Below are positions 11,606 through 38,133 of a stretch of DNA of 64,000 bases, one piece after another; positions within the stretch are counted from its first letter, which is position 1; each line of letters begins with the position of its first letter. The notes beneath the pieces were generated by a model. It had not been told where the DNA came from. It saw only the letters and a program-made list of their open reading frames with translations, and did not search any database. A program made the translations under genes and the position numbers. This DNA is from an uncultured Balneola sp. (GTDB lineage Bacteria > Bacteroidota > Rhodothermia > Balneolales > Balneolaceae). Where the stretch lies: assembly GCA_913058495.1 (NCBI GenBank), contig CAJXQC010000001.1, positions 60,779-124,778 of the forward strand, written 5' to 3'.

Positions 11606-11755
11606 GAATAACACAAATTGCACATATACTTATTTTTTTATACTCTTCTTATTTAAAATTGTATTTTGATAATAAATATTTTTTTCACAAGACAAGTACA
11701 AATAGTTAATTATCAATCCCTTAATTATTTAGGGTAATAGTACTCAAATATTTGC

Positions 11756-14671
11756 ATGAATAAACTTAAAGGTTTAAATACGCATTTTAAAAAAGGCTTG
11801 TCTAAGCTTGGTTTTAACAAAAACCAAGAATTTCTTTTTTTTACTGATCAAATTAACCTGTCTGATCCAGAAGTAAGGTTCCATGTAGAAAAAGCAAAAG
11901 AATTTGAAGCTTCTGCTGTTTTTCTTAGAAAACAATTAAATGGTATCTATAAACCTCAGGTCTATATATATGATTTAACCGATGAAGATTTAGAGAGTGA
12001 GATTGTATTATCTGAGATACAGAAAAAACTGTGGACAAGTGGTGAAGTCCCTTTGGCTTGTATCTTTTACAAAACCGAAATTAAAATATTGGATTGTACT
12101 ACTCATTTAGATAAGAACTATAAGCCAGAGTATTTAATTAATCACCTTAAAACTACAGGCAGAACTCATGAGATTTTTAACGAACAGTTTGCATTAAGAA
12201 TTAAAAGCGGTGTATTCTGGGAAGAACCTAAATTTGAAAAAAAATTTCAGTTCAGAAACTCTTCTTACGATAAGCTTATAAGTAATATTAGATACATTGT
12301 AAATTTACTAAATAGAGAATACTCAAACGTTTCTAAGCAGCTTATTAATAAACTAATAATACAATCTATATTAATTAAATATCTTGAGGAGAGAATAGAT
12401 GTTGATGGAAATAGGTTGTTATCTGATAAGTATTTTGCAAAGTATGGCGAAAGTTTATCATTTAATGATGTACTAAGAAAGGGTAAGTTTTCTGATCTGC
12501 TCACTGATTTAAATGATGCAAAATCAGGTTTTAACGGCAATATTTTTAATTGGTCCAAAAAAGAAAAGAGAATTATTTCCGAATTAAACTTGGATATTCT
12601 TGCTGATTTATTGGAAACAAAAAAAACTGATTTAGTTTCAGATCAGACTGAGCTTTTTGATTGGAGGTATTTTGAATTTAAGTATATACCTGTAGAGCTT
12701 ATTAGTAGGCTTTATGAGGAGTTCTTGGGGCAAAATAAAAGAGATGAAGGTTTATATTATACTCCGTCACATTTGGCCAAATTATTAGTTAATGAAAGTA
12801 TTTCTCTCAATGATTATAAAAATATTGATCTATTAAACTTTAAAGTATTAGATCCGGCATGTGGCTCTGGGATATTTTTAGTTTTAGCTTTTAAAAGACT
12901 TGTCCAAATTTGGAGACTCCAAAATGACATGAAATCACCACCCCTTAAAGTCTTAAAAAAACTATTAAGGTGCATCTATGGTGTAGATAAAGAAGGACAA
13001 GCTGTAAGACTTGCATCTTTCAGTTTATGTTTGGCTTTATGCAATGAATTAAAGCCAATTGTCATAATAAATGAACTTAAATTTGATGACTTAGAGGAAA
13101 CGGGAAATTTACTACAAACTGATTTTTTTGTTTCCCATCCTATAAAAAAGAAAAAGTTCGATCTAATTATTGGAAATCCTCCTTTTAATCGAGGGGCCTT
13201 AGATAATTACTCAAACTACTGGCAGGAAGAGAATTTCAATGTCAAAATACCTCAGGGACAAATAGCATTAAAATTTTTAACTGATTCAATTCCACTTTTA
13301 AAGCCGGAAGGTTTGTTATGTTTAATAATCAAATCTTCAGGATTGCTTTACAATACATCATCCACAGAGTTTAAAAAAGCACTTTTTAAAACTTATAATG
13401 TAATACAGTTATTTGACTTTACAGCTCTTGCCAGAAATAAAACCCTTTGGGATAATGGAGCAGATGTAGCCAGCGCTGCGATATTTTTAAAGAATCAAAA
13501 GCCCAATTTTGATAAGAACATTCTTCATCTAACATTCAGAAGGACAAAGGCCACAAAAGATCGAATAATTTTTGAAATTGATGAGTATGACCTTCACTAT
13601 GTAAACAGAATTTCTGCAATACATCAATTTTTTATTTGGAAGAATAATTTACTTGGCGGTGGTAGAATTAACCAAGTTGTAGAAAAATTGATACAATACG
13701 AATCACTTGAGCAATACTTAATTAAAAATGACTGTTCTGCCAATGAGGGTTTCATAGTTGGCTCAAAAGGGAATAAATCACCAGATTTCATATTTGAATT
13801 GCCAAATTTGCCTACCACTGCAATAGATGAAAACAATATTGATTTAGAGAAGCTCACCACTCTTGATGCATCTTTAAAATTTCAAAAGATACCCAGGAGA
13901 GATTTCTTTGAAGGACCAAATGTCCTTATTTGGGAGAATATTGGAAAAAACTCTTTACCTGTCTTTTATAATGAAAAGGCTTTCTCTTTTAGGGATAAAA
14001 TTGTGAGTATCATAAGTGAGAAAAAGGACCGAAAAATCTTAAAAAATATTCATCAGTCATTAAGAGAATTATCAGCCTTTTTTCGCTTTTTTATTTTCGC
14101 AACAAGTAGTCAAGTTTTGATTAATAAAAACACTGCTATTTTAAAGAAGGACATCCTGAATTTACCCTTTGTTCAACATTCAGAGAGTGAAGAGTTTACA
14201 GAGTTTGATCACAAAATTGTGCATGACGTAAATGAATATATGCAAGATTATTTAAGATATGGTGAAAGGTCAAAAGCGGTTGAAAAAATTAAAAAACGAG
14301 ATATAAAAAAGATTGTTGGGAATTATGGTAATCAATTTTCCAAAATTCTTAATATTGTATATCAAGATCAGGATAAAAGATTTAGATTGAAGAATATATT
14401 TGATATTAATAATTCATTTATTGCAACGGTCTTTAGCTATGACAATCAAAAAAATAAAGCTGAAGTTATAGATATAGAAAACAACTTAGAGCTTGAAAGA
14501 TTAATTGATTTTGAAATTTCAAATAGTCTCGCGTCAACTCGTGTACTTAAAATATATCCACACAAAAATACTATAGTGTTTGTTAAGCCAAATCAATACA
14601 AATATTGGCTATCATTAACCGCATATAGGGATGCAGATAAATGCTTTTCAGATTTAACCAAAATAGTTTAA
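11756..14671 (+). CDS. N6-adenine DNA methyltransferase, type IIG/I-like large subunit
   Basis: YYTP, VLDPACGSGIFL, GNPPF; very AT-rich. Confidence 0.85.
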   Translation: MNKLKGLNTHFKKGLSKLGFNKNQEFLFFTDQINLSDPEVRFHVEKAKEFEASAVFLRKQLNGIYKPQVYIYDLTDEDLESEIVLSEIQKKLWTSGEVPLACIFYKTEIKILDCTTHLDKNYKPEYLINHLKTTGRTHEIFNEQFALRIKSGVFWEEPKFEKKFQFRNSSYDKLISNIRYIVNLLNREYSNVSKQLINKLIIQSILIKYLEERIDVDGNRLLSDKYFAKYGESLSFNDVLRKGKFSDLLTDLNDAKSGFNGNIFNWSKKEKRIISELNLDILADLLETKKTDLVSDQTELFDWRYFEFKYIPVELISRLYEEFLGQNKRDEGLYYTPSHLAKLLVNESISLNDYKNIDLLNFKVLDPACGSGIFLVLAFKRLVQIWRLQNDMKSPPLKVLKKLLRCIYGVDKEGQAVRLASFSLCLALCNELKPIVIINELKFDDLEETGNLLQTDFFVSHPIKKKKFDLIIGNPPFNRGALDNYSNYWQEENFNVKIPQGQIALKFLTDSIPLLKPEGLLCLIIKSSGLLYNTSSTEFKKALFKTYNVIQLFDFTALARNKTLWDNGADVASAAIFLKNQKPNFDKNILHLTFRRTKATKDRIIFEIDEYDLHYVNRISAIHQFFIWKNNLLGGGRINQVVEKLIQYESLEQYLIKNDCSANEGFIVGSKGNKSPDFIFELPNLPTTAIDENNIDLEKLTTLDASLKFQKIPRRDFFEGPNVLIWENIGKNSLPVFYNEKAFSFRDKIVSIISEKKDRKILKNIHQSLRELSAFFRFFIFATSSQVLINKNTAILKKDILNLPFVQHSESEEFTEFDHKIVHDVNEYMQDYLRYGERSKAVEKIKKRDIKKIVGNYGNQFSKILNIVYQDQDKRFRLKNIFDINNSFIATVFSYDNQKNKAEVIDIENNLELERLIDFEISNSLASTRVLKIYPHKNTIVFVKPNQYKYWLSLTAYRDADKCFSDLTKIV

Positions 14672-14672
14672 T

Positions 14673-15347
14673 GTGATAGCTGACGAATATCCTAAAAATA
14701 TTATTAAAGGGGGATCTGCTAATTTCAGCTTTGACAAAAATCGACCAGTTGAATTAATAATAGATTCTTTAAAAAGGACTGTGCCTCACTTTAAATCATA
14801 TTTGCTTACTAAAATTGATAAAAAATACTTAAACGAAGATGAGCTAACTCAAGTTTTTGTTGAACAATTAGATATACAAATTCGAAAATTAAATCTGCCT
14901 TTTGGTGTGAAAAATGAGTACCAAGATATCTATAGTAGAAGTCCCGGATACTCAGACTTTTATTTTCATCCAATTGAAGAATTTAAATCTACTGCTTCAT
15001 TATTTTCGGTAGAATGTAAACGCCTTCCTGCACCTACTAAATCAAGAGAGAAAGAGTATCTAATTGGTAATAAAAAAAATGGAGGAATTGAGAGATATAA
15101 GCTTGAAATTCATGGAAGGGGATTATCAAATTGTGGTATGTTAGCGTTTATCGAGGATAAAAGTACAGATCATTGGCTAAAGTCGATTAATGAATGGATT
15201 TATGAGATTGCGGAATCTGACAAAAAATGGAGAATAAAAGAGCGTTTAATTAGAAAAGAGAAGGCGATTGAATTTACATATTTACATTCTGTAGTTTATA
15301 CAATTTCTCAAAGGAAAGTTAAACTTCATCATTTTTGGCTTTGTTGA
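14673..15347 (+). CDS. Putative PD-(D/E)XK nuclease-like partner of the upstream MTase
   Basis: SDFYF...VECKRL resembles the PD-(D/E)XK core; 1-bp gap after the MTase stop. Confidence 0.5.
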   Translation: MIADEYPKNIIKGGSANFSFDKNRPVELIIDSLKRTVPHFKSYLLTKIDKKYLNEDELTQVFVEQLDIQIRKLNLPFGVKNEYQDIYSRSPGYSDFYFHPIEEFKSTASLFSVECKRLPAPTKSREKEYLIGNKKNGGIERYKLEIHGRGLSNCGMLAFIEDKSTDHWLKSINEWIYEIAESDKKWRIKERLIRKEKAIEFTYLHSVVYTISQRKVKLHHFWLC

Positions 15348-15363
15348 AAATAAATAACAAGCT

Positions 15364-16041
15364 TTACTTTTCATCCTCATCAGAAATATCGTAAACAAAT
15401 TTGTAGCAAACTTTCGCCCACCACTCAAAATGTTCTTCTTTACCAGTATCGTGATAGTAGTTCAGCTTTCTTAGGAAGTCACCTTTATCTTGCAGGTTTT
15501 TCCAATCAACAAACTTACTATAAGCCAACAAGTAAAGGTTTACGAACAGTCGGGCAATTCTTCCATTACCATCATAGAATGGATGGGTAAAAACAAACTT
15601 CTGATAGAAACGAAGTACATCATTAACCGGGCTATCACTTTCAAAGTCTAATAGGTGCTGAAAGGATTCTTTTAAATCATTCTCAATATTCTCTGGCTTA
15701 GAACCGGTAAACCTTGGCCGTAATTCTTGACGTCTTTGCCCACCAAAATAAACAGACCCAGAACCATCGTGATCAGAACTTCTGAATTCACCATTTATTG
15801 AAATAATTTCCTTAAAAATAAATGCGTGATACTCTTTACAAAAAGCAATAAAACTTTCTACACTTACATTTAGCAAGCCATTTTTCGTATAAATGATTTG
15901 TTTGGGAATAACAGTGTTATCCAGTACTTCAAATCGAGTCCGCGCCAAACGATTTGCTTCTTCAACATCATCAATGGAGTATTCAGCAGGAAAGAGTTCG
16001 ATTAGCTCCCGTAATTGCTCTAACTCAGCACTTTCGCCCAA
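15364..16041 (-). CDS. Fic family protein
   Basis: Canonical HPFYDGNGRIAR motif. Confidence 0.9.
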   Translation of the reverse strand: MGESAELEQLRELIELFPAEYSIDDVEEANRLARTRFEVLDNTVIPKQIIYTKNGLLNVSVESFIAFCKEYHAFIFKEIISINGEFRSSDHDGSGSVYFGGQRRQELRPRFTGSKPENIENDLKESFQHLLDFESDSPVNDVLRFYQKFVFTHPFYDGNGRIARLFVNLYLLAYSKFVDWKNLQDKGDFLRKLNYYHDTGKEEHFEWWAKVCYKFVYDISDEDEK

Positions 16042-16043
16042 AA

Positions 16044-16673
16044 TCAGCTAATCTGATTTACAAGGAATGTGTAGTCTTCAGAAGCTTTTGAAAAGAGACT
16101 TTTGTATTCCTCAATAGAATCAAACATTACTTCCGCTGCTTTATCCGATTTGTCCATATCAAAGATAAAGGCGTAGTGCGAAATGGTGTTGGGCGGATAG
16201 TAACCCTGATTCTTGGTTAACGGGAAATTTTTAGCAAATGACTCGTAGGTATAATAATCCAGAATCTCCTGATCAGTAATTCTGCCATTTACTTCTCTCT
16301 TGTTAATCCAGGGATCTTCAGCATGGGTTGCTTTAGAAAGCGTGATAGCGTTATAGAAGCCATAGCTATCCAAGATAAAATCTACTACTTCTTTTTCCTC
16401 TTTAGAGAGCGGAATGTAGCTTGGAGAATCTTCGATAGGGTTATTTTTATACTCCTTATACTCATGGTAAATACCGGGATTTACCGGTCCATGCTTCCAT
16501 GCAAAGAAAGCATCAGAAGATTTGATCATCTTTTGATCAGCAACAAGTGTCCATACCTTTACATAGTAGAGAAGTTTTTGGAGCTTCATCGGGGTAATTT
16601 CTCCTGGATACTTATTCAGGATATAAGACGCTATGTTGTGTAAAGAATGCATTCGTTGATTTTTTTGGAACAC
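16044..16673 (-). CDS. Panacea (DUF4065/SocA-like) antitoxin-domain protein
   Basis: ITPMKLQKLLYY, AWKHGPV, LSKATHAEDPW motifs; start may be 16652. Confidence 0.85.
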   Translation of the reverse strand: MFQKNQRMHSLHNIASYILNKYPGEITPMKLQKLLYYVKVWTLVADQKMIKSSDAFFAWKHGPVNPGIYHEYKEYKNNPIEDSPSYIPLSKEEKEVVDFILDSYGFYNAITLSKATHAEDPWINKREVNGRITDQEILDYYTYESFAKNFPLTKNQGYYPPNTISHYAFIFDMDKSDKAAEVMFDSIEEYKSLFSKASEDYTFLVNQIS

Positions 16674-23292: not shown

Positions 23293-24069
23293 CTACTCCG
23301 CTGGGATGAATCCGGTTCTTATCTGCACGTAGCTCTCACAAAGGAAACTTACCTCGGCAGGCTGGGCACCATAGTTGGAAGCGTACACGTCAAACGGCAC
23401 GTTCGAGCCCACCACAAAGGGTACGTTGATGTACTTGTCGTTGAACTCGTCGTTCACCTGCTCCAGGAATACTTCATCGCGAACCGTGGTGTTGTACACT
23501 TTCATCGAAGCGGTAATAGCTCCTGGCTGGTTACTGCTCATGGCCATGCGCCGAACCTGAACGTCCACGCTTTTGCTTTTCACGCCCAGATCAATGTTGA
23601 GCCCGCCAGCTGGAACCGTGCTATGGCCATACAGGAACCGGGGCACGGGAATCGAAGCTCCAATCTGCTGGTAGGCCGCATTTAGTTTGGACAGGGCAAA
23701 CTGGTCATAACCGACAATCTGAATGTTTACCGTTTGCTTAGCAGCACCGGTATTGGTGAGTTCAAAAACGATATGGTTGTTCTTTTGAATGATAAAAGGA
23801 GCAAATAGTCCGTCAATAGATTTGAACAGATTGTGCACTACCGAGAGCTGGACGCCCCGAAACAGATAAAGGTCTTCGTTTAGACGAGCGGAAATCAAAA
23901 TGGCATTCATGTTGGCGCTGAACGGGAGAATCTTTCGGATGCCGTAGCGCTCTCCACCCATGCCGTTCATGGTAAGGTGAGCCGTTGCTCCCGGTTGCAC
24001 CTCAACCGATTTGGCCGGATTGTAAGCTGAACTTTCTTTAGGAGGTAAAAAATTGGAGAGTATCTTCAT
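23293..24069 (-). CDS. Putative double jelly-roll capsid protein (tandem duplicated beta domain)
   Basis: Halves align: VQPG/VPAG, GIRKI/QVRRM, PFIIQKN/PFVVGSN, TNTGA/SNYGA, IQIVGY/FLCESY; size similar to small DJR capsid proteins. Confidence 0.55.
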   Translation of the reverse strand: MKILSNFLPPKESSAYNPAKSVEVQPGATAHLTMNGMGGERYGIRKILPFSANMNAILISARLNEDLYLFRGVQLSVVHNLFKSIDGLFAPFIIQKNNHIVFELTNTGAAKQTVNIQIVGYDQFALSKLNAAYQQIGASIPVPRFLYGHSTVPAGGLNIDLGVKSKSVDVQVRRMAMSSNQPGAITASMKVYNTTVRDEVFLEQVNDEFNDKYINVPFVVGSNVPFDVYASNYGAQPAEVSFLCESYVQIRTGFIPAE

Positions 24070-24856: not shown

Positions 24857-25360
24857 CTAGACTTCGATGGTATTATCAACCTCTAAAGAATGTTCTACCT
24901 CATCCACATGGTGTGTTTTTTCCTGGATTTCAGGCAGGTTGTCATACACGTACCCGGAGCCATCCATAAGACCTTGCTGGGGTGTCCAGTCAGGGGTAAT
25001 AAATTTGATGACTTCCATTACGCCTTGTACGCCCATACCCATGGCCAAACCGCGAACGTGTTTGTTTTTGGAAAGGAGCGTTAGAAGTACTCCAGCGGTG
25101 AGAGGGATACCTGCTCGGGTGGCTTGTTGAATAGTTGCTGAGGCGTTGCCTGTCAGCAAGGGGACGGCCAGGACATTCATCTGGGCTGCCACCGCTTGTC
25201 CACCAAGAATATATCCGGCGGTGATAGCCTGCTGCTTGAACTCAGAGACCGCCTTCTCGGTAGTGATTTTGCTTTCTGTTATCATATTACTGCGTCGTTT
25301 GTTTGGGTTTTCGATGATTTGTAGCTCGGAAGGGTTCTTGGCGAACACGCGCTCTTTCAT
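24857..25360 (-). CDS. Virion membrane protein candidate
   Basis: Several Gly/Ala-rich hydrophobic segments; N-terminal NP motifs; directly upstream of the capsid candidate. Confidence 0.5.
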   Translation of the reverse strand: MKERVFAKNPSELQIIENPNKRRSNMITESKITTEKAVSEFKQQAITAGYILGGQAVAAQMNVLAVPLLTGNASATIQQATRAGIPLTAGVLLTLLSKNKHVRGLAMGMGVQGVMEVIKFITPDWTPQQGLMDGSGYVYDNLPEIQEKTHHVDEVEHSLEVDNTIEV

Positions 25361-25388: not shown

Positions 25389-28300
25389 TCAATTAAGAAT
25401 GCCCCTGCCGTCTATGTTGACGTTAGCGATGATGTACACATCACCGTATTTAAACACCGGTCGCTTGCCCGCATCGAAGTAGTGGAAATAGTGATTGTCT
25501 TTGCCTTTTTCGTCATCGGCGTAGATAATCTTATCGCTCACGTACATAATGCGGTCGGCATAGCCGGCACTGATCAGTTTCTCGCCTAAAGGCGGAAACA
25601 GCTCATAATCGTAGTCATCTGCCGGGAAATGATGAAACTCCTCAAACATTTCGGCGGCTTTCGGGTCATTGTAAGCTCCCTTGGAGAGCCTCATTAAACT
25701 GGTTGGAAACACATAAATAGTGGTGCCTTTGGCGTTGATGATCATCGCCAGATCATCAGATTCGGCTTCCACGCGCTGCATGTAGCCCTTGGCGTCGATG
25801 TACTCCAGTTCCTTGACGATGCCGGAATAGACCAGTGGTTCTTCATAGAGGGTTTTGAGTACGCCGTGTCGTTTGGTGGTTTTTGCAGGCACACTGTCCG
25901 CCTTGTTCTCACGAAGTTGAGGCGATCCTTTGGGTGCACTGCCTTTTAGCGAACCCACATCACGGACAGTGATCGTTTTGCGGATCTTGTATTTCGGGGC
26001 GATCCGGTTGATCTCTTCATACAGCTCGTTCCGGTCATCGTAGCTCACCGCCACCAGCTGGTTGACCACATCGTTGAGTTCGATCACGGTCTTCTGATTG
26101 TTTTCGCTTGCGGTTTTAGACGCTTCCAGCTCTGTTTTGGTATCTGCCAGCACCTTTTGAAGTTCAGCCAGCGTTTTCTCGGTCTGCTTTAATTCACTGC
26201 TTAGCAGTTCCATGCGGGACTGGGAGGTTCTGATCCACGCTTTTTCGAGTTCCAGGAATAGCTCCGCCAGTTTTCGGGTGATAATCGGCTGCCACTTTTT
26301 GATGGTAAACATCCCGGCGGACTCTTTGATGGCCTTGAAGCTTTGCTCGTTTCCAACCTCGTCTTTTTTGGCCTTTTCGGCTTCGATGTCGATGCCGTAT
26401 TCCGCGTAAAAATCTTCCTCCGTGGCAATGATGTTGCCAAGGTTGCCGGAGATGGATTTGCCCTGTCCGGTCTTTTCTTCCAGCGTCCACCCGAAGGCAG
26501 TGGCCAGCTCTTTGGAGGCCATACGTTTGATGGAACCCCACGTCTGCTTGTTGTAGAACGAGCGGTCAGGGATATTGCTGTCGGGGATCAGGTGAAACCA
26601 TACCCGCCCGTTGGCATTGTTTTCGGGCACGTCCAGCACGGTTTTCATGCGGTAGCCGGAAATGCGTTTGGAGTCGGAGCTAAGCTGGATATCGAGCTGG
26701 TACGGCTCGCCGTTCCACCCGTACTGCACGTCTAACAGGTTCTCCTTTAACGCTTTTTCAGCGCTTTCGGGAAGCTTTGAGTTTTGTAAGGCCGATTCCC
26801 GCTCTACCACGCTTTTCATGCGATCCTGTTTTCCCTGGATATCGGTGGTCGCCTGCGCTTGGCTGGCTTGGAGTCGTTGCACTTCAGATTCCAGGTTGTC
26901 AATCCGGTCATCGAGTACGTTCTTTTGAGCTAAAGCTTCGAAAAATTGTTTTACTCGCGGATCGGAGTTGGTCGCGGCTACCATCTGCTCGTATTCCAGT
27001 GACTCCGAGTCGCCACCCGTGGACACTTCACGCACGGTGCCAAAGAACAGGTCATCAATCCAGCTCTGTTTTTTGGAGACCAGTTCCAGCCGGTACTGAT
27101 CAAAGGAGTCCTGCATTAGGTAGTAGTGAATCTGAACTTCCCCATACTGATTCCCCTGACGAAGCCCGCGCCCGTTGCGCTGCTGGATTTGCGAAGGCGT
27201 GTAGGGAACGTCCATGTGGTGCATGTCGGTCGTCCACTTCTGAAGGTTCATCCCCTCGGCAATCGACTGGTTGCCAATTACCACCCGGTACTTACCCTGG
27301 TTGAAATTGTCCTGCACTTCTTTCTTAAGCGCTTCCTTGTCGTCTTTGCTACTCACGGAGTAATCATCCCCGTTTTTGCTCGTGCCAATGATAGACCCGT
27401 TGATGATCGCAATCTGCTCTTTGGGGATTCCGGCTTTGACCAGCTCGGATTTGATGAGCTGATGGAAACTACCTCCCTGAGACTGATGAAGGCTGATCCA
27501 GTCGCAGAATATAATCTGGTTGCGAATAGCAGGGCTGGCTGGATTGGATCGGCTTGCTTTGATCTGCTCCCATTCTTTATTGAGCTTATGGGCGCGTTCG
27601 GTAGCTTCTTTTTCGTTGCCAAAGATGCCTTCGCTCCATGTGTGTTCTGGTTTTTTGGGCTCCAGTATATGCAGGGGCTCATACACTTCTTTCTTTTCAT
27701 CCCAGACCACCCAGTAGCCGCTCTTTTCTTTTACCACACCCTTGCTGGTAATGACCTCAATATGGGATGGGTTCTCCCGGAGGTGCGGAGGAGTCACGGC
27801 AATCTGTCCTCTGCCTGGCCGGTGAAAATAGTCGCCGTATAGGTCTTCCGGCACCATTTCGGGAGCGGGATTGGAACGGGCCCCGTAGGAAGCGGCCACG
27901 TTTTCGACCATTGCTCCAAGCTTGAGGTAGGATCGGTCGATACCTTCAAAATCCTTGTCGTACACCCGCAGGTCGGTCGCAATTTTGCTGCCATCGCCGG
28001 TAATTACAAGAAAGTTGTCGCGGGTTTCGCACTGCCGTTCTTTCATGCAGGCGATGACCTCGTTGGCCCGGAGGATAATGTCATCAAAAAGAAGCTTATG
28101 CAGCTCGCTGGGCTCAATAATCACGTTTCGGGTACTGGCCTTGGGGCGCTTGAATTTGGGTTCGAGCACCTTGGGTTTTCCATCCTTGCCATTGACCGTT
28201 TTACCGTCCTCATCCTGAATATAGTCTGGGAATTCCTTGTAAAAACCAATCAGCTGATCGTAGCTCTTGATGTCCATTACCTCGTCAATGATCTTGCGCA

Positions 28301-31300
28301 TTTCCGGCAGGTTGTAGTACCCGGCCACCACACGCTCGGAGCGGTATTCTCCGTTGGTCTTTTTGACGATCTTTTCTTCTTCCCGGACAAACAGGTTAAT
28401 GAAGTTATCGAGGTTTTCAATTTCGTATTTGGCCAGCAGATCCGGGGCGCATAGGTTAAGCATGTGCCACACCTCTACCGGAGAGTTCACGACCGGGGTT
28501 GCGGTAAGCACAAACACGTTTTTATGGCCCACTTTGCTGAACAGCCACCGCGTTTTTTGCAGGGTGTCTTCGGCTCGCTGGGAAGGCTTGTTCGCCGAGA
28601 TTCCCAGCTTGGCGGCTTTGGCCGAACCCAGGGCGTTTTTGTAGAAATGCGCCTCGTCAAAGAACAGGCAGTCCACGCCCAGCTCGTCAAAGAAAATATC
28701 GGTTTCAAGGCGCTTGGAATGCGCCACATTGCGGAGCTTGGTTTCCCATTCTTCCATCTGCTTTTCCATGCGTTTCATCATGGAGGTTTTGGCCGCTTTC
28801 GAGATGGCCTCGTCTTCTTCAAGCAGGTCCTCAAAATTTTCCAGCATTTGGTTGAAGTAGTCGATGCGCTCCTGGTAAATACGAGCCTGCTCTGCCGGAG
28901 ACAATGGAAGTGATTTAAAGGCGTGGTCGGCGATAAAGATAGCGTCCCAGTTGTAGAGCTGGGCCATCGTAAGTTCTTTATGCTTGTCTCCACCGGCCAT
29001 TTTCATGTTGAGGACTTTGGCGTCTGGAAAGAGCATCAGGTATTCTTCCACCCATTTTTCCTGCACTTTGCCGGGCACGACAAACATCGGTTTTCGGGCG
29101 GCTCCCTGCTGGAGGAGCACTTGGGAGGTGATAATGGAAGCCAGCGTTTTTCCGGCTCCCACATCGTGGCAGTTGGCACCTTTGCCGTTCCACACCAGCT
29201 TTTCGGCAATGGCGCGATTGTGCTTGTACACGGTAAAGTCTTTCACCCCGTAAAAGGTGTCGCTCATGCCTCGAACCCGAAGGGTGCGCCCGTCAAAAGG
29301 CGGGTTGATCACCGCGTTATAGGTATGGTTGTAGGCGGCCTCGATCATGCCTCGGACTTCGGAGGAAGCTTTGGTGCGCACCCAGTTGTTGAACTTTTTG
29401 GGCACGTGCGTAAGCATCCGGTTGTTGTTCTGGCGCTGTATTTTTCGCGCCCGTTCGATGAGCATCTGACCGCGTTCTCCCTTCATGGATTGCGCTTCTT
29501 TGAGCGTCATAGACGGCATGAGGTTGTCGTCCTCATCATAGAATTTCAGCGGAAAGGTGCTGTCCTGAATGTACGAGGTAATGATTTTGGTAAATGGCGT
29601 CTCGCCCCAGCCCAGGTTGTTGTCGTCGGGGGTTTCATCGCCCGTGCCCACATAACGGCCCCATTTCCGAAGCTTCATGTAGAACCGGTTGCCGAGCTCG
29701 GCTTTGTCTTTGACAAGGCCGATTTCCACTTTGTCGTAGTTCATTTCATCTTTGATCCACTCTTCAATGGCTTTGGCAGGCAGGTAAGTAAACACGTGCT
29801 GCGGGTCCACGGTAATGTTGTACACGTCGATCCATTCGGGCACCACCTCTTGTAGCGCCTTGATGTTCTTTTCCAGCTCGTGCTCCTGGGCCAGTTGCAG
29901 TTTCTCGCGCACGTTACCCGAGAGGTACTGGTAGCGAAATTCGTGGTTTGACGTGGCCGGATTCCAGTAAAAGTCAGGGTGATCTTCCAACGCTTTTTCC
30001 AGCTCCTCTTTGCTGGTCGTGCCCCCTTTGTACACCGATTGGTAGAAGTCAAGATCTAAGGTCTCACCAATACTGCGCCCGAACATGGCCAGCTCAGCCA
30101 AATCGTCAGAATCCTTTACCGCAGGCACATAGTTGCGATTGAACATAGAATCGGCGTCGATGATGTCGGCGTGCACCAGCTCTCCATTAAGCGGATCTCG
30201 TTTCACAAGGGTCGTGAGCTTGTAAAGCCGGTTGTCAAACTTGAACACCTTGCGAATGTCTTCGTCTTCATCGGGAACCCCGTACTGCTCGATGTGACCC
30301 GATAAAAGCTGCTTGAATTCAGCACGGAGGGCGTCTTTTTCGCTCGTTTCCTGCGCCAGTGCGGTTATATAGTCGTCGTATTTGTCCAGCAGCTGACAGG
30401 CCGATCGGGTGCGCGCCTCCAGTCCGGAGCCGCCTTTGAGGGTAAGCCGCTTGAAAAACCGTCGCTGTTTCTCGTAAAAATGGTTCTCATGGAAGACGAT
30501 ATTTCCCGGATGGTACGACCTTGGCAGGTTAAGCATAATGCCATCATCGGGAATGTTGTACAAGGGCATCTCGACCGGAAGCGAGTAAGGAAAAGTCAGC
30601 CCGTCAGAAAGCACGGAGTTAATAACAGATTCAGAAAGTTCACCTTTCACTCCCATACGGGAATAAAACTGTACGTGGTGCCCCTGAATATGCTCACCCA
30701 ACACGTGGTTTGGGTGTTCTTTATAGTACGGGTTGTAAGAAGCGGTATAGGTTTCACCATTATAGGAGACCTGACTTTCAATCAGCTCCTCTTGGGCAAA
30801 AAGTCGGTTGAGTTTCGAGTCCACGTCCGGATGAATGTCGCCCTGATGCTCTCCATATTTCTGGAAGAAAAGAATATCGGTAGTTACCGTGGTATCGGCG
30901 TTGTCTTTAAACGCCGTAGAAGGCAGCCGGTAGGCCCCTACAAAATGGGCGCGTTGTATCATAGCCTGACGAATGGACGGGTCTTTTTTATCCATTGTGC
31001 CCGTCGAGGTGATCACCGCCAAGAAACCACCGGGTTTAAGAGCGTCCAGGGATTTTAGGATAAAGTAGTCGTGAATGCGTGGGCTCATTGGGGCCAGCGG
31101 ATCGCGGGAAGTATGAATTTTCAGGTCCCCAAAGGGCACGTTCCCAACCACGCCAGTCAGGTTGTATAGGGAAAGATCGGTGTCGGCAAAGTTTTCGTGG
31201 CGCACGGTCTGCATTGGGTATAGCAGACTCGCAATACGGGAACTAATGGCCGAGCGTTCGATCATGACCATCCGAAACTTGTCGCGGTCGGGAAGGAATC

Positions 31301-32618
31301 CGGCAAAGTTGCCCACGCCAGCGCCTGGCTCTAAAATATTGCCACCCGTGACACCCATTAGTTGAAGCTTATCCCAAATGAGTTTGACCACGGGGTACGA
31401 GGTGTAGTGCTCATTTAGCAAGCCCCGCTTGGACTGCTCGGTGGATTCGGTGTAGCCTAACCCGCCCGCCCCGGTGTAAGAGCGGAGTAGGTCGATATCG
31501 GATTTGGTAATCGCGCGGTCTTCTTTTTGAAGCACCCCGATGGCCGCTTCGTTGGCTTTGCGACGCTCGGAGGCGGTTAGCTTGATGGGCGCAAATTCCG
31601 AAAGTTCGGTGTCGCTAAACCTAAAAGTTGATTGGCCTGATTTCTTTTTGGGCTGTTTGGCAGGTGTTGGTTTCTTAGATGTGGCTCGGTTAAATACCCC
31701 GTCAAAATCGACGCCGATGATGCGACCGTGTGCCCTGAAAAGCTCCAGGGCTTCTTCTCTATGCTCTGCCGGAAACTTGTCCAGCTGAAATGCCAAGGCC
31801 AGTTTACCTATGGTCTGCTCAAAATCTGCCTGAAGCTGTTGGAGCTCGCTGCCTGGATTAGACCGAAGGGTAAGCTGGGTTTCAAGCGCTTCCAAATCGA
31901 CCAAATAAGGTTCGAGTTTTTCCGCTGATTCGGTGTCGCCTTTGTCGGCTTTCCACGCGAGTTGGGTGAGTTCTTCCAGGAGTGCCCCGTTAAGCTGGCC
32001 CACTTTATAGGGCTGGTGCGAGGCCGCCGAAATCATGGACATCCGTTTGGTTTTAACCTGGATTTCGACCGGGTACTGCCCGTCCACTACGAGGATAAAA
32101 TGATGGGCGCGGTAGCCATTCGCTGGGTTTTTATATTTGTCTTCGTGTTCCCACACTTCGCCCAACTCGCCCGAAAGGATACGCTCCACCATCTTATCCA
32201 CCTGCTCCTGGGTTTCAGCAATGGCCATACAACCCGCCACATCGGTCAGGCCGGTAGTGTATTTTTCTCCGGCTTTGGTGGCCATTTTTTCGGTAAAGGG
32301 AAACCTTTTGCGAATGAGTTTCCCTAAAGTGGAATAAATTTCTTTAATTCGGCCCTTTACCACCAAGGCCAGATTCATAGCCAATAGCCCTTTCATGACT
32401 TTCTTTAGGGCCGGGATATAGTTGTTTTTCGCCTCAATCACGGCCTTGATCTGCGGTGCCAGTTCGGCCTCAGAAACCGGGGCGGTATCTCCCGGAGTAA
32501 GCGGGTTGGGATCATCAATATTGACAATCCCGTCGGAGTCCCAGTCGCCCAACCAGTGATCAAAGTCGCCGGTGGACAGGTGGGTAATCTGGTCGATATT
32601 TGTTTTAACTACGGGCAT
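25389..32618 (-). CDS. 2409-aa polyvalent protein: RelA/SpoT-like synthetase + N6-adenine MTase + SNF2 helicase (DarB-like) + unknown C-terminal domain
   Basis: KGRIK, DVAG, NGYRAHH, EIQVKT; LEPGAGVGNF, GNVPFG; HDVGAGKT, DEAH, LTATP, AEGMNLQ, QRNGRGLRQ. Confidence 0.85.
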   Translation of the reverse strand: MPVVKTNIDQITHLSTGDFDHWLGDWDSDGIVNIDDPNPLTPGDTAPVSEAELAPQIKAVIEAKNNYIPALKKVMKGLLAMNLALVVKGRIKEIYSTLGKLIRKRFPFTEKMATKAGEKYTTGLTDVAGCMAIAETQEQVDKMVERILSGELGEVWEHEDKYKNPANGYRAHHFILVVDGQYPVEIQVKTKRMSMISAASHQPYKVGQLNGALLEELTQLAWKADKGDTESAEKLEPYLVDLEALETQLTLRSNPGSELQQLQADFEQTIGKLALAFQLDKFPAEHREEALELFRAHGRIIGVDFDGVFNRATSKKPTPAKQPKKKSGQSTFRFSDTELSEFAPIKLTASERRKANEAAIGVLQKEDRAITKSDIDLLRSYTGAGGLGYTESTEQSKRGLLNEHYTSYPVVKLIWDKLQLMGVTGGNILEPGAGVGNFAGFLPDRDKFRMVMIERSAISSRIASLLYPMQTVRHENFADTDLSLYNLTGVVGNVPFGDLKIHTSRDPLAPMSPRIHDYFILKSLDALKPGGFLAVITSTGTMDKKDPSIRQAMIQRAHFVGAYRLPSTAFKDNADTTVTTDILFFQKYGEHQGDIHPDVDSKLNRLFAQEELIESQVSYNGETYTASYNPYYKEHPNHVLGEHIQGHHVQFYSRMGVKGELSESVINSVLSDGLTFPYSLPVEMPLYNIPDDGIMLNLPRSYHPGNIVFHENHFYEKQRRFFKRLTLKGGSGLEARTRSACQLLDKYDDYITALAQETSEKDALRAEFKQLLSGHIEQYGVPDEDEDIRKVFKFDNRLYKLTTLVKRDPLNGELVHADIIDADSMFNRNYVPAVKDSDDLAELAMFGRSIGETLDLDFYQSVYKGGTTSKEELEKALEDHPDFYWNPATSNHEFRYQYLSGNVREKLQLAQEHELEKNIKALQEVVPEWIDVYNITVDPQHVFTYLPAKAIEEWIKDEMNYDKVEIGLVKDKAELGNRFYMKLRKWGRYVGTGDETPDDNNLGWGETPFTKIITSYIQDSTFPLKFYDEDDNLMPSMTLKEAQSMKGERGQMLIERARKIQRQNNNRMLTHVPKKFNNWVRTKASSEVRGMIEAAYNHTYNAVINPPFDGRTLRVRGMSDTFYGVKDFTVYKHNRAIAEKLVWNGKGANCHDVGAGKTLASIITSQVLLQQGAARKPMFVVPGKVQEKWVEEYLMLFPDAKVLNMKMAGGDKHKELTMAQLYNWDAIFIADHAFKSLPLSPAEQARIYQERIDYFNQMLENFEDLLEEDEAISKAAKTSMMKRMEKQMEEWETKLRNVAHSKRLETDIFFDELGVDCLFFDEAHFYKNALGSAKAAKLGISANKPSQRAEDTLQKTRWLFSKVGHKNVFVLTATPVVNSPVEVWHMLNLCAPDLLAKYEIENLDNFINLFVREEEKIVKKTNGEYRSERVVAGYYNLPEMRKIIDEVMDIKSYDQLIGFYKEFPDYIQDEDGKTVNGKDGKPKVLEPKFKRPKASTRNVIIEPSELHKLLFDDIILRANEVIACMKERQCETRDNFLVITGDGSKIATDLRVYDKDFEGIDRSYLKLGAMVENVAASYGARSNPAPEMVPEDLYGDYFHRPGRGQIAVTPPHLRENPSHIEVITSKGVVKEKSGYWVVWDEKKEVYEPLHILEPKKPEHTWSEGIFGNEKEATERAHKLNKEWEQIKASRSNPASPAIRNQIIFCDWISLHQSQGGSFHQLIKSELVKAGIPKEQIAIINGSIIGTSKNGDDYSVSSKDDKEALKKEVQDNFNQGKYRVVIGNQSIAEGMNLQKWTTDMHHMDVPYTPSQIQQRNGRGLRQGNQYGEVQIHYYLMQDSFDQYRLELVSKKQSWIDDLFFGTVREVSTGGDSESLEYEQMVAATNSDPRVKQFFEALAQKNVLDDRIDNLESEVQRLQASQAQATTDIQGKQDRMKSVVERESALQNSKLPESAEKALKENLLDVQYGWNGEPYQLDIQLSSDSKRISGYRMKTVLDVPENNANGRVWFHLIPDSNIPDRSFYNKQTWGSIKRMASKELATAFGWTLEEKTGQGKSISGNLGNIIATEEDFYAEYGIDIEAEKAKKDEVGNEQSFKAIKESAGMFTIKKWQPIITRKLAELFLELEKAWIRTSQSRMELLSSELKQTEKTLAELQKVLADTKTELEASKTASENNQKTVIELNDVVNQLVAVSYDDRNELYEEINRIAPKYKIRKTITVRDVGSLKGSAPKGSPQLRENKADSVPAKTTKRHGVLKTLYEEPLVYSGIVKELEYIDAKGYMQRVEAESDDLAMIINAKGTTIYVFPTSLMRLSKGAYNDPKAAEMFEEFHHFPADDYDYELFPPLGEKLISAGYADRIMYVSDKIIYADDEKGKDNHYFHYFDAGKRPVFKYGDVYIIANVNIDGRGILN

Positions 32619-32621
32619 GGC

Positions 32622-34040
32622 TTAGCTAAGGACTTTTTCTAAAAAGGCATCGAGTTTGGCCTGGCTTTTTCGGGCGGCTTCTAGGTCTACTTCAGCCTTT
32701 GGAGGCGTCTGCTCTTTAGGCTTAGGTGCTGGTTTGGATTTCTTTACCGCCGATTTTTTCTTGGCGGTTTTCTTGGTGGGCGGAGTAGGTTTGCGCTTAG
32801 GTGTTTTCTTGGCTTTGGCTTTGCCGGTTGGCGGGCAATCCGCGGTGCCATCTTGCAACTTTTCCTGCCTCCGGTATTCTCGCGCGCCCAACACTTTCTT
32901 TGCATGATCCTGGGCCAGAATCTGTACTTCCAGATTTCCGTGCTTTTTCACCAGCTGAGCCCAGGAAGCCGCAAATCCGCCTTTGGCCCCTTCGGTGCAG
33001 ATCTGGGTTTTCAGCTCCCCGTCAATGAGCAGCTCCACGATGTAACGTTTGTTGTAGTAGTCGGGCACATAGCGAATGCTCAGTGTTGCCCGTTCGGACT
33101 CCCCGGAATGCTGTTTGGCGTAGCACGGCATTTTGGAGCCGAGCAGTGAATTCACCCGTTTCCAGGAGCGCAGTTTGTGGAGGGTATTGATTTTTTTGAG
33201 TGAGATCGTAAATGGCAACTCTACGGGATTATCGCGTGGCTCGCTGTGCGTGGGATTCATTAAATAGCTTCCTCTTTTTGAGGCCCAATGGGCTGCCTGC
33301 TGTTTAGTGAGACCAAATTCATCCTGAAAAAAGTCGATGAGTTCCTCATCAGTTGAGGTCTCATTATTAGAAAGCTGGTCTTCCACGCCTTCATGCTGGC
33401 TTTGCGTAAGCGGGGGAATAATTTTTAGAGTTTCGGCAGTGGCTAATGTGCCAAATGGAACATCGATGGCATTTAATAACTGATAGCGGTTTTTTTCGGT
33501 CTCAGCCAGTCCCTCTTTGGTTACTTTAATTTCAATGTCGCATTCGTGTGCGATACTGGTGTTGCCCTTATACTTGCCATCTTTGGTCGCATGTGCCACC
33601 ATGATGAACCCAATGCCATGTTCGCGGCACCACTGTGCCAGTTCTACCGTGGAGGCGTCTTTGGCGTCAATGACAGAAATAGAATCCAATACGCAAAAGG
33701 CAGATCTGTTTTTCAGCAGGGTTTCTTTTAGCGATGTGAGTGATTTCCACTTAGTAAAGTTCAGGTTGTTGTGGGTCGCTTTTAATCGCTTGACTCGGTC
33801 AATGAGTGTTTTACCGAAATGTTCTTCGGCTGGTATATATTCGACTCTACCGTGCTGTGCAAGAGCGTTTGCAAGGCCTAAACTGAAGGTGGACTTTCCG
33901 GCCCCTTTCTCACCCCAGATAAAGATGACGGCATTTTTCTCCGGTTCCCCAAGAAGTGTACCATAAGGTTCGGCAATCTTGATGCCTTTGATGTTTATTT
34001 TTGCCAGTTCTTTGGCGCTCAGAGTATTCTGGATGTCCAT
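32622..34040 (-). CDS. RecA/RadA(Sms)-like ATPase with Lys/Pro/Ala-rich C-terminal tail
   Basis: WGEKGAGKS Walker A, CVLDSIS Walker B, AH.TKDG...G...IAHECD, KNRY; tail KKTPKRKPTPPTKKTAKKK. Confidence 0.8.
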   Translation of the reverse strand: MDIQNTLSAKELAKINIKGIKIAEPYGTLLGEPEKNAVIFIWGEKGAGKSTFSLGLANALAQHGRVEYIPAEEHFGKTLIDRVKRLKATHNNLNFTKWKSLTSLKETLLKNRSAFCVLDSISVIDAKDASTVELAQWCREHGIGFIMVAHATKDGKYKGNTSIAHECDIEIKVTKEGLAETEKNRYQLLNAIDVPFGTLATAETLKIIPPLTQSQHEGVEDQLSNNETSTDEELIDFFQDEFGLTKQQAAHWASKRGSYLMNPTHSEPRDNPVELPFTISLKKINTLHKLRSWKRVNSLLGSKMPCYAKQHSGESERATLSIRYVPDYYNKRYIVELLIDGELKTQICTEGAKGGFAASWAQLVKKHGNLEVQILAQDHAKKVLGAREYRRQEKLQDGTADCPPTGKAKAKKTPKRKPTPPTKKTAKKKSAVKKSKPAPKPKEQTPPKAEVDLEAARKSQAKLDAFLEKVLS

Positions 34041-36470: not shown

Positions 36471-37487
36471 CTATTTATTTAGAAGCATATACCCGCCACC
36501 AATCAGAACCAAGGTTCCAATGGCAAGACCAGCATACAGCCCCATTTTTTTGGTTTTATTTGCTGCTTGTTGTTGAGTAACCCAAACCGGGGAAAGTTGC
36601 CCGTAGCGATTCAGTTGCTGAACCGCCGGGGCACCAAGTTCATCTATAATCTGTGCGTAGCGCTGAAGTGTGGCATTATCCTTTTGGGAAAGACTGATGA
36701 CCTCGGATTGCACGCCTCGCTGCATGAGGTGATCTCGAAGGGCTCCGCGCATTTGGCGCTCACCAGAATCCTTGGCTCCAAATATGCTGGACAAGGTATT
36801 TTTTAGCGTCATCCCGGTACTGGCCATTGTTGTAGCCGTGGTGAGTAGCGTAATAGGGTCAAGCCCCAAACCTTCCGGCATCAGGTTGGTGACGTGCCTG
36901 GATTTTTTAATGAGCCGCTCATCAAATACGTAACCTGGATATTTCAGCACAGTTGTATCGAAAGATTTCCAGCCGGTAGGTGATTGGTACACCGCGTAAA
37001 TATGGTCAAAGTGACGTCCCGTTCGCGAGACAATGCGAAAGCCCGTTTGAATACCTAAGCTTTGCAGCAAGGCAGCACCTAAAATGGCATGATCATCGCA
37101 GTCACCGGCTCGCTGAGTAATGGTGACAAAGGGCGATTGAATACGCTCGACATCCCATGGGTCGCGCACGTAATTCACGTTGCGCACCATCCACTTGTAT
37201 ATGGCGGAGGCAATAGCGTCAATGTTTCGCAGGTCGGGTTGTCCGGTAAGCCGGTGTCGCCGGATTGTGCTTGTAATTTTGAGAGCAAGTGAGCGAATGC
37301 GCTCGTCGCCGGTATATTTAGTAACCAACCTGCTGGCTGCCGAAATTACGCCTTCCACACCGGGGTAGGCCTGGCGTCGTGTAGAAAGAGGTACTGTGGA
37401 TGCTTCCAAAGAAGCATCCACAGCCCGTGCTCTGGCATGTTGCTGCTGGGTATCTGGTAATATCTGTACGTAGCCACTTTGCATCAA
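36471..37487 (-). CDS. Transglutaminase-like (Cys-His-Asp) enzyme with C-terminal membrane anchor; putative maturation protease
   Basis: YVRDP...GDCDDH, FDHIYA, SFDTT triad; internal EGLG; C-terminal TM. Confidence 0.8.
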   Translation of the reverse strand: MMQSGYVQILPDTQQQHARARAVDASLEASTVPLSTRRQAYPGVEGVISAASRLVTKYTGDERIRSLALKITSTIRRHRLTGQPDLRNIDAIASAIYKWMVRNVNYVRDPWDVERIQSPFVTITQRAGDCDDHAILGAALLQSLGIQTGFRIVSRTGRHFDHIYAVYQSPTGWKSFDTTVLKYPGYVFDERLIKKSRHVTNLMPEGLGLDPITLLTTATTMASTGMTLKNTLSSIFGAKDSGERQMRGALRDHLMQRGVQSEVISLSQKDNATLQRYAQIIDELGAPAVQQLNRYGQLSPVWVTQQQAANKTKKMGLYAGLAIGTLVLIGGGYMLLNK

Positions 37488-37705: not shown

Positions 37706-38133
37706 GAGTGGGCAATTGGATTAGTTCGCGTTATGTATAGCTTCTGCAGTTCTGCAATTACATCAACCAATAGCGCTTTTTCTTCTGGTCGAAGTGAAAA
37801 AGTACCCGACCAAATGAGTAATAGGTTGGTGGCAGCACTGGCAGAGATACCGGCATAGGTCGAAAATTGCCCTGATCCATCCACTAAGGGATATATACTT
37901 TCTGCAATTCGTTTCGCGCCGATATCTCTTTCCAATGCCCTTCTGCCCAATTCAATAGCGATACTGATCCAGTCCTTGGCCGTCAAAGGTCTGTTTTCAA
38001 TGCCCTGAATGATTCCAATTTGTGATTGTATGGCCCGTACATAGGTTATATAGCGGGCCGCAGAGGGGGAGTCGATAGCCATAAAATCCAAAGCAGCCTG
38101 TATTAATTTTTGATAGGGGAAGTGCATGCTCAT
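37702..38133 (-). CDS. Hypothetical alpha-helical protein
   Basis: 4-bp overlaps with both neighbours. Confidence 0.6.
   Translation of the reverse strand: MSMHFPYQKLIQAALDFMAIDSPSAARYITYVRAIQSQIGIIQGIENRPLTAKDWISIAIELGRRALERDIGAKRIAESIYPLVDGSGQFSTYAGISASAATNLLLIWSGTFSLRPEEKALLVDVIAELQKLYITRTNPIAHS

Follow-up and report, generated by a model that had tools for sequence, protein, structure and literature searches.

Comparison of a 64,000-nucleotide stretch of an uncultured Balneola sp. genome (contig CAJXQC010000001.1 of assembly GCA_913058495.1; hereafter the window, numbered from its first letter) with related loci indicates that the tetrapeptide R-x-N-P (RxNP) marks module seams throughout the virus group of Salisaeta phage SSIP-1, nearly every module of the large proteins being preceded by it. 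The window holds a provirus of this group, whose 2409-amino acid (aa) protein, here called P0001, has a SNF2 helicase in which two RSNP copies enclose 105 aa; this stretch is a swappable cassette region in the solvent-exposed hinge between the two lobes of the SNF2 motor, and alignment of relatives has shown RxNP to travel with the cassettes exchanged between lineages. We tentatively favor the explanation that RxNP is a proteolytic processing site, to which we give just short of an even chance.

A swappable cassette region in the helicase hinge

P0001 combines, in order, a RelA/SpoT domain, an N6-adenine methylase, a SNF2 helicase and a conserved C-terminal domain, with Pfam matches to RelA_SpoT, an Eco57I-type N6-MTase signal, SNF2-rel_dom and Helicase_C. 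PHROG 10089, "DarB-like antirestriction", matches the protein with E 8.2e-172, and tblastn aligns it with the DarB-like proteins of Bcep22, Gervaise and others at ~25% identity; close homologues occur in Fodinibius, Rhodohalobacter and Gracilimonas genomes and in metagenomes. An AlphaFold model of aa 1100-1950 (m7383083438bd, predicted local distance difference test score, pLDDT, 77.8) matched the SMARCAD1, INO80, SRCAP and CHD1 motors in Foldseek (E 1e-16 to 1e-18), and with two RecA-like lobes that carry the SNF2 motifs and fold, P0001 is predicted to be a SNF2 family ATPase. The features of the gene are as follows.

25389..32618, minus strand: P0001, 2409-aa polyvalent protein (open reading frame, ORF, and translation)
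32001..32354, minus strand: RelA/SpoT nucleotidyltransferase module, aa 89-206 (Pfam PF04607, 7.9e-11)
31854..31865, minus strand: RSNP after the RelA/SpoT module, aa 252-255 (in frame; R-x-N-P at the same place in nearly all relatives)
27879..29171, minus strand: SNF2 ATPase lobe 1, about aa 1150-1580 (Pfam, AlphaFold model and Foldseek)
27867..27878, minus strand: RSNP, hinge motif 1, aa 1581-1584 (directly after the last helix of lobe 1)
27780..27866, minus strand: hinge peptide between motifs 1 and 2, aa 1585-1613, APEMVPEDLYGDYF... (alignment)
27768..27779, minus strand: RENP, hinge motif 2, aa 1614-1617 (in frame)
27552..27767, minus strand: type-A cassette, aa 1618-1689 (hairpin-plus-helix domain of no known family)
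27540..27551, minus strand: RSNP, hinge motif 3, aa 1690-1693 (six residues ahead of strand 1 of lobe 2, NQIIF)
26919..27539, minus strand: SNF2 ATPase lobe 2, about aa 1694-1900 (Pfam Helicase_C, model and Foldseek)
25392..25841, minus strand: C-terminal domain, ending ...IDGRGILN (conserved in all family members)

A preliminary description of the window had placed RSNP at 27867-27878, 27540-27551 and 31854-31865, RENP between the first two, RDNP at 33225-33236 in a neighbouring ATPase, and an RTNP and a KNP/ENP pair in other proteins of the element; all of these positions are right, and the two helicase RSNP copies do enclose 105 aa containing RENP, in frame within the 2409-aa ORF. It also took the enclosed segment for an insert into a linker that is normally short, and the relatives of P0001 (the family is numbered P0001-P0040) agree. 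The hinge has 9-14 residues in 14 of 16 distant DarB-like sequences, the other two having unrelated inserts without RxNP, and because these distant proteins carry a short linker at the same hinge, the segment is a true insert. Insert-free close relatives have a basal hinge of 42-45 residues between the aligned anchors LVITGDGS and NQIIFCD, with the order RxNP, AP..PE.IYGDYF.., RxNP, 2-5 residues and RNQIIF (seen in P0026/27 and P0029-31). In P0005-8 the hinge is as long as the basal form, but a decayed RENS or RENT stands in place of the second motif, and the hinge peptide core PE.IYGDYF is kept in all Balneolaceae-type relatives. The 105 residues are thus a composite and no single unit, consisting of a 29-residue hinge peptide, RENP, and a 72-residue cassette whose own trailing motif is the third motif (RSNP, aa 1690).

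Alleles with different motif-bounded inserts, for which the preliminary description had recommended a search, do exist. The type-A cassette is present in P0001-4, with a diverged copy in P0025, and absent from P0005-8, P0026/27 and P0029-31. An unrelated 80-residue cassette (type B) lies at the same point in P0009-24 and P0028, P0035 has about 430 residues in the slot, including an S-adenosylmethionine (SAM)-methyltransferase domain, and P0036-40 have several short motif-bounded pieces there; at least three unrelated inserts share the slot, and all end in RxNP. A tree of the 1130-residue backbone places type A, type B and empty hinges within one clade (support 100/100), with P0003 (insert) sister to P0005/6 (no insert) and P0004 sister to P0007. 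Because the insert states scatter over this well-supported tree, the hinge cassettes have been repeatedly exchanged or lost, in line with the domain shuffling proposed at the outset. The N-terminal leader of the family varies independently of the hinge cassette. Simple deletion between two RSNP copies was rejected as the origin of the insert-free alleles: the junction of P0005-8 (GRQRARENSNGVIRNQ) is shorter than the product of such a deletion, and its motif is degenerate.

In the AlphaFold model the cassette has a folded core at aa 1632-1688, made of a hairpin and a helix with block-mean pLDDT 62-84. Hinge motif 1 (model residues 482-485) has a block-mean pLDDT of 56, and values below 50 are found for the hinge peptide at aa 1590-1609 and for the segments that hold motifs 2 and 3 (motif 3: model residues 590-596), so the hinge motifs sit in segments predicted to be flexible, flanking a folded mini-domain. 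The type-A cassette had no Pfam match and a single marginal PHROG match (E 0.029), and a search of the genome and the fetched loci gave no donor or paralogue of it. For the type-A and type-B cassettes, the C-terminal domain, and the ATPase second domain and capsid candidates described below, nothing significant came from Pfam, PHROGs or PDB sequence profiles. The Ino80/Swr1-class remodellers likewise tolerate a large insertion between their ATPase lobes, and INO80, SRCAP and SWR1 are among the best structural matches; the eukaryotic insertion, however, is one conserved scaffold for partner subunits, whereas the slot described here takes exchangeable cassettes bounded by a motif. The hinge slot also shows how polyvalent proteins gain new modules.

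Some side observations concern other parts of the same proteins. LAGLIDADG-type inteins split the Walker A loop (GAGK/.../T) of the SNF2 helicase in P0035 and P0037 (L005:5631-17891), which are GC-rich relatives. The N-terminal effector is exchangeable, the RelA/SpoT module being swapped for a Zeta-toxin/AAA_33 kinase in P0034 (L006:10001-17335) and encoded by a separate gene in L005, where a stand-alone 423-aa RelA/SpoT protein (L005:4201-5472) has an RENP and a membrane anchor. Ahead of the RelA/SpoT domain of P0001, aa 20-46 (32480-32560, minus strand) form a DxDxDG...DDPNP stretch, DWDSDGIVNIDDPNP, which resembles a calcium-binding loop and travels together with RelA/SpoT in relatives.

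RxNP is enriched at module seams across the virus group

The preliminary description left it to a comparison with background to decide whether RxNP is special, and the answer is negative for P0001 and its element alone and positive for the family. P0001 has four RxNP versus 0.22 expected, which is the third-best among all three-residue patterns in the protein and unremarkable after multiple testing. The other ORFs of the element hold two in 4961 aa (0.52 expected, P = 0.10); the whole genome holds 108 in 1.03 million aa, P0001 being the sole protein with more than two. Judged from counts of this kind, enrichment becomes decisive only once relatives are included: P0001-P0040 have 195 RxNP versus 11.4 expected, and 80 distant DarB-like proteins have 18 versus 20.4. 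An unbiased scan of three-residue patterns ranked R.NP first in four other giants, namely P0035, P0036, a 2115-aa ART-containing polyvalent protein of locus L004 (seven RxNP between domain-sized modules, 0.24 expected) and a 1268-aa membrane-anchored protein of locus L007 (14 RxNP versus 0.21 expected, P = 2e-21). L004 also encodes a 298-aa membrane protein with three RxNP in its disordered N-terminal tail. Nothing in the group comes closer to "beads on a string" than the L007 protein (L007:1574-5380), from a GC-rich relative, whose motifs part modules of ~80-100 residues, several of which are tandem repeats.

The sites of the P0001 family are topologically fixed. RxNP occurs at the N-terminus, either at residue 2-3 (MRDNP, MSRRNP) or after a leader of up to ~105 residues; behind the N-terminal effector (the Zeta-toxin kinase for P0034, RelA/SpoT for most members); two to five times in the hinge; and, in many relatives, ahead of the C-terminal domain. 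Modules between RxNP sites are domain-sized in the related giants as well, and the initial proposal that the motif marks domain boundaries holds for both the polyvalent protein family and the ATPase. Members without an N-terminal motif often have a Met-Pro start at, or no more than one residue from, the Asn-Pro position (P0001, P0002, P0004 and P0026). Gene fissions also fall at the motif: the ATPase gene of L003 is split, L005 has its separate RelA gene, and P0027 and P0033 start just before a motif.

Across 83 non-redundant sites only Arg, Asn and Pro are fixed; the flanks are free, and x can be Glu, Ser, Gln, Thr, Asp or Lys. Every one of the six Arg, two Asn and four Pro codons occurs among the sites, whose flanking DNA is unrelated; since synonymous codons vary freely, selection acts on the peptide.

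The element is an SSIP-1-like provirus

Nine proteins of the window match SSIP-1 gp34, 35, 36, 40, 44, 45, 46, 47 and 54 by blastp, with their order kept (window 19089-42732 compared with locus L008, which is SSIP-1, Salisaeta icosahedral phage 1, NC_017983). Because nine proteins match in the same order, and because a jelly-roll capsid candidate is present, the window holds an SSIP-1-like provirus, and sequence comparison identifies the element as an integrated membrane-containing jelly-roll virus related to this Salisaeta phage. The capsid candidate is the following.

23293..24069, minus strand: 258-aa double jelly-roll capsid protein candidate (AlphaFold pLDDT 86)

Foldseek matched it to the capsid proteins of PM2 (P2), STIV, PBCV-1, PR772 and phiCjT23, it superposes on viral protein I1ZBI0 with a TM-score of 0.86, and tblastn matches it to SSIP-1 gp47. 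With only 258 aa, this gp47 homologue, a predicted double jelly roll, is close in size to PM2 P2 and the phiCjT23 protein, and its neighbour is a 203-aa gp45/46 homologue; a 2018 review gives SSIP-1 as "single jelly roll?" (PMC6260650). A conjugative element was rejected as the context, given that no Tra or type IV secretion system families were found and that the neighbouring genes match SSIP-1 structural genes.

The element and SSIP-1 have in common the gene order, homologues of gp34, gp40, gp44, gp45/46, gp47 and gp54, and a giant protein at the same position, so that a transglutaminase-fold protein, an ATPase, a giant ...RGILN protein, gp44-like, gp45/46-like and gp47-like proteins and SLT are all found together. 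They differ in that SSIP-1 was isolated as a lytic phage of a GC-rich Salisaeta host, whereas the element described here is a provirus in a Balneolaceae genome of 42% GC. The almost unstudied SSIP-1 group is common as provirus in Balneolaceae, and proviruses of several genera of this family can now be placed in it.

The giant protein of SSIP-1, gp43, has 2319 aa, is named "DNA methyltransferase" and takes the place that P0001 has in the element. The two share only the ...RGILN C-terminal domain (E = 8e-9; L008:33300-33822), which has RENP ahead of it in gp43; unlike this domain, the body of gp43 is unrelated to P0001, with no detectable SNF2 match. A C-terminal domain ending in ...(D/E)RGILN, usually with RxNP ahead, is common to otherwise unrelated giants (the P0001 family, SSIP-1 gp43, P0125 and P0126) and may anchor giant proteins in the particle. 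The GenBank record of SSIP-1 annotates gp34, gp40, gp41, gp43-48 and others as structural, and gp41 begins MRENP. By analogy with gp43, P0001 is probably carried in the virion. The delivery with DNA that is ascribed to polyvalent proteins would here be indicated indirectly, by a structural annotation for a protein with the same position and the same C-terminal domain.

The motif in other proteins of the element

Four further rows describe the ATPase that carries RDNP, the membrane protein with the KNP/ENP pair and a third protein that bears on the function of the motif.

32622..34040, minus strand: 472-aa protein with a RecA/KaiC-like ATPase, RDNP, a second domain and a Lys/Pro/Ala-rich tail (Pfam AAA_25, PHROG ATPase)
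33225..33236, minus strand: RDNP before the ATPase second domain (RxNP-V.xPF...), aa 269 (in frame, conserved)
24857..25360, minus strand: 167-aa membrane protein with KNP and ENP in its N-terminal tail (translation)
36471..37487, minus strand: 338-aa transglutaminase-fold protein with Cys130/His162/Asp177 and a C-terminal membrane anchor (Pfam Transglut_core 5.6e-8)

The expectation that RxNP would recur across the element was borne out in part. The 472-aa ATPase is homologous to SSIP-1 gp40, annotated as a structural ATPase, and its RDNP site is kept in every related element (L001, L002, L003, L005 and L006). An exhaustive profile-free search for the second domain gave 29 representatives at no more than 50% identity, 22 of which were inspected, and in 21 of these 22 diverged homologues RxNP lies directly ahead of the first conserved residues of the domain. 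In the Gracilimonas locus L003 (L003:8427-9999), where the ATPase gene is split, the second gene retains a leader and two RxNP. The 167-aa protein fits as bare NP: its NP...NP pair, without Arg, is conserved in L002, L003 and SSIP-1 gp44 and, if an alternative start is taken, in L001, while L006 has an altered version. The RTNP at 37717-37728, four residues from the end of a 143-aa ORF, was excluded from the system and most plausibly occurs by chance, because it is not conserved in the L001 and L003 orthologues. Two side observations touch the ATPase: its Lys/Pro/Ala-rich tail is histone-H1-like, and P0125 and P0126, 1250-aa proteins with the ...RGILN domain at their C-termini, contain its second domain internally.

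The 338-aa protein is 39% identical to SSIP-1 gp34, annotated as structural. Its homologues are conserved in the window, L001, L003, L006 and SSIP-1, and the Cys/His/Asp triad is invariant in four diverged orthologues (alignment A4).

RxNP as a candidate processing site

By its sequence P0001 would be classed as a polyvalent protein, being encoded by a virus and carrying at least two unrelated effector or anti-defence domains. As described by Iyer et al. (2017, PMC5512222), polyvalent proteins are giant polypeptides of invasive elements, each joining many such domains; modules of the RelA/SpoT, methylase and SNF2 kinds are among those known from them (RelA/SpoT as the phage type only), and processing into units is postulated and assigned to an in-built zincin-like metallopeptidase, frequent and not universal. 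A term search of the same paper turned up no linker or junction motif. P0001 differs from this scheme in being without the metallopeptidase: no HExxH is present in P0001 or five relatives, Pfam finds no peptidase family in P0001, and a zinc peptidase within P0001 was ruled out on the absence of HExxH. The related protein P0126 has HEAVH, which is a zincin-type motif.

Processing of polyvalent proteins is assumed to follow their delivery, their cut sites are hardly known, and the sole proposed cutter is absent here. A motif that stands at each seam, travels with cassettes, is kept at N-termini and is shared by several proteins has the signature of polyprotein or propeptide cleavage sites, and the SSIP-1 counterparts of the motif-bearing proteins are annotated as virion components in its GenBank record. 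If RxNP is a processing site, the cut would probably fall at or beside the Asn-Pro bond, and the downstream module would then start at a defined residue. A cut at this bond fits because no gap separates the motif from the conserved start of the downstream domain, while the spacer upstream is long and variable, and the Met-Pro starts fit if the mature protein begins with that proline. The protease responsible would be encoded by the virus itself, and the membrane-anchored transglutaminase-fold protein with its Cys-His-Asp triad is a candidate, and cutting could take place during particle maturation or after delivery. Autocatalytic scission at Asn-Pro would be a minority variant of the same idea.

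A broader proposal, which we consider possible with the balance tipped somewhat against it, is that R-x-N-P, with Asn-Pro as its core, serves the SSIP-1-like membrane-containing jelly-roll viruses of bacteria as the cleavage code for virion maturation. The giant polyvalent proteins, the DNA-binding-like domain linked to the ATPase and the membrane-protein tails would then be synthesized as polyproteins, from which cleavage at Asn-Pro would release individual components, either of the virion or injected. Maturation proteases of other viruses recognize short consensus motifs that recur in many virion and core proteins, at internal seams and at N-terminal propeptides, the protease itself being in the particle: L/I-x-E for T4 gp21, S/A/G-x-E for phiKZ gp175, (M/I/L)xGx-G for adenain and GG-x for pS273R of African swine fever virus (ASFV). 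Adenovirus and ASFV are viruses with jelly-roll capsids, and their cysteine proteases act on core proteins and polyproteins. RxNP resembles these codes in recurring in the polyvalent protein, ahead of the ATPase second domain, in membrane-protein tails and in the 2115-aa and 1268-aa proteins; it differs in its motif, in that cleavage is presumed from its placement, and in that the candidate enzyme has a transglutaminase or papain-like fold, not one like that of adenain/Ulp1 or of the herpesvirus and T4 proteases.

Several points weigh against processing and keep our estimate just under even. A hinge cut would part the two lobes of the SNF2 motor, a strange outcome for an enzyme expected to act after delivery. 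The transglutaminase-fold protein could equally be a cell-wall-degrading entry enzyme. No homologue of it came up in the sequence available for L004/L007 and L005, which took in ~36 of 50 kb of the contig for the GC-rich relatives with the densest motif arrays. Pro at P1' is disfavoured by most endopeptidases. SSIP-1 has few copies of the motif, with five RxNP in 13,103 aa versus 1.4 expected. Finally, the tandem, nearly overlapping RENPIRENP of P0040, together with the tail of the L004 298-aa protein, looks more like multivalent binding.

This last point belongs to the strongest alternative, which we regard as unlikely though worth serious attention, namely that RxNP is an uncleaved short linear motif bound by a virion protein (capsid, membrane protein or ATPase) that recruits or packages its bearers, with multiple copies giving avidity. 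Placement in predicted disordered segments, the clusters and tandems (RENPIRENP, the 14 copies in the L007 protein and the three in the L004 tail) and the virion annotation of the bearers' SSIP-1 counterparts are all as expected for such a tag, and the helicase would stay whole. A tag, however, needs neither placement once per seam nor abutment to the first residues of the downstream domain; it leaves the Met-Pro starts near the Asn-Pro position unexplained, and no candidate reader protein was identified.

The motif might instead be read by no protein and act as a passive helix C-cap and proline stop, with Asn at C' and Arg against the helix dipole, insulating one module from the next. Asn and Pro are preferred at helix ends, two of the three hinge motifs directly follow a helix (model helices 467-480 and 570-589), and many sites in relatives follow helical-looking sequence. 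We think this improbable: many other sites follow Pro/Gly-rich or N-terminal sequence without a helix (MRDNP, GGRRNP, PPEARENP), three residues invariant across proteins of less than 30% identity and from 39% to 65% GC would be rare for passive linkers, and the distant DarB-like proteins manage without RxNP.

Self-cleavage, in which the Asn side chain attacks its own carbonyl (the succinimide route) and the Asn-Pro bond breaks without a protease, seems to us very improbable. In its favour, Asn-Pro is the invariant core, SSIP-1 gp44 and the 167-aa protein (in its tail) both keep bare NP pairs, the elements gave no protease common to them all, and RENPSH at aa 1614 resembles NPTH. FlhB/YscU (NPTH) and reovirus mu1 cleave themselves at Asn-Pro in folded turns with the help of Thr/His or other residues, and RxNP is like them in its invariant Asn-Pro at the presumed scissile position. 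It is unlike them in that its context is predicted to be disordered and only the Arg at -2 is conserved, whereas the known cases need a folded turn and helper residues; Thr/His after NP is not conserved, positions +2 and +3 being variable across the 83 sites, and uncatalysed Asn-Pro scission is very slow. Membership in the NPTH class was rejected, given that only aa 1614 reads NPSH and that the motifs lie in low-confidence segments. Autocleavage of FlhB itself at Asn-Pro is documented (PMC3708937). Ribosomal skipping of the 2A type, defined by D(V/I)ExNPG-P together with a conserved upstream region, was likewise discarded: no Gly-Pro follows NP, no upstream sequence is conserved, and the motif occurs even at residue 2.

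Least probable is the suggestion of the preliminary description that the 12-base RxNP-coding stretches are DNA recombination anchors for cassette exchange, which would suit inserts that are always motif-bounded and scattered over the backbone tree, with insert-bearing members sister to insert-free ones, but which is at odds with the free variation of codons and flanks, with the motif's presence where nothing swaps (as at the ATPase second domain), and with the length of twelve degenerate bases, too few for homologous exchange, for which the conserved IYGDYF and RNQIIFCDW would serve equally or better.

Read as a processing site, this three-residue junction code, which several proteins of a single virus group share, defines cut sites precisely enough to be tested, and SSIP-1 is a cultured member of that group. 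If the reading is true, RxNP would be, to our knowledge, the first maturation-protease code in a bacterial membrane-containing jelly-roll virus, and the polyprotein processing of adenoviruses and asfarviruses would extend to prokaryotic relatives.

Relation to DarB and surroundings of the provirus

P0001 is like DarB of phage P1, an anti-restriction protein whose packaging in the capsid depends on DarA/Hdf and which protects DNA from type I restriction, in joining a methylase to a SNF2-type helicase in more than 2000 aa. It is unlike DarB in that its virus is a tailless membrane-containing jelly-roll virus and no myovirus, and in that the hinge of DarB-like proteins, at 9-14 aa, is without RxNP enrichment. 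General scans brought no DarA/Hdf homologues to notice among the neighbours of P0001.

To the left of the provirus lie two large genes with Type ISP/MmeI-like methylase domains (8411-11605 and 11756-14671), a Fic/DOC protein (15364-16041), a SocA/Panacea antitoxin-domain protein (16044-16673) and a DUF2513 protein, and the block 8411-16673 looks like a defence island. No integrase was present among the window ORFs scanned; L003 and L006 carry one at the corresponding end. Just to the right of the element is a tRNA-Met (CAT) gene at 44142-44216 on the plus strand, followed by the host genes for NfeD and SPFH/Band 7 proteins.

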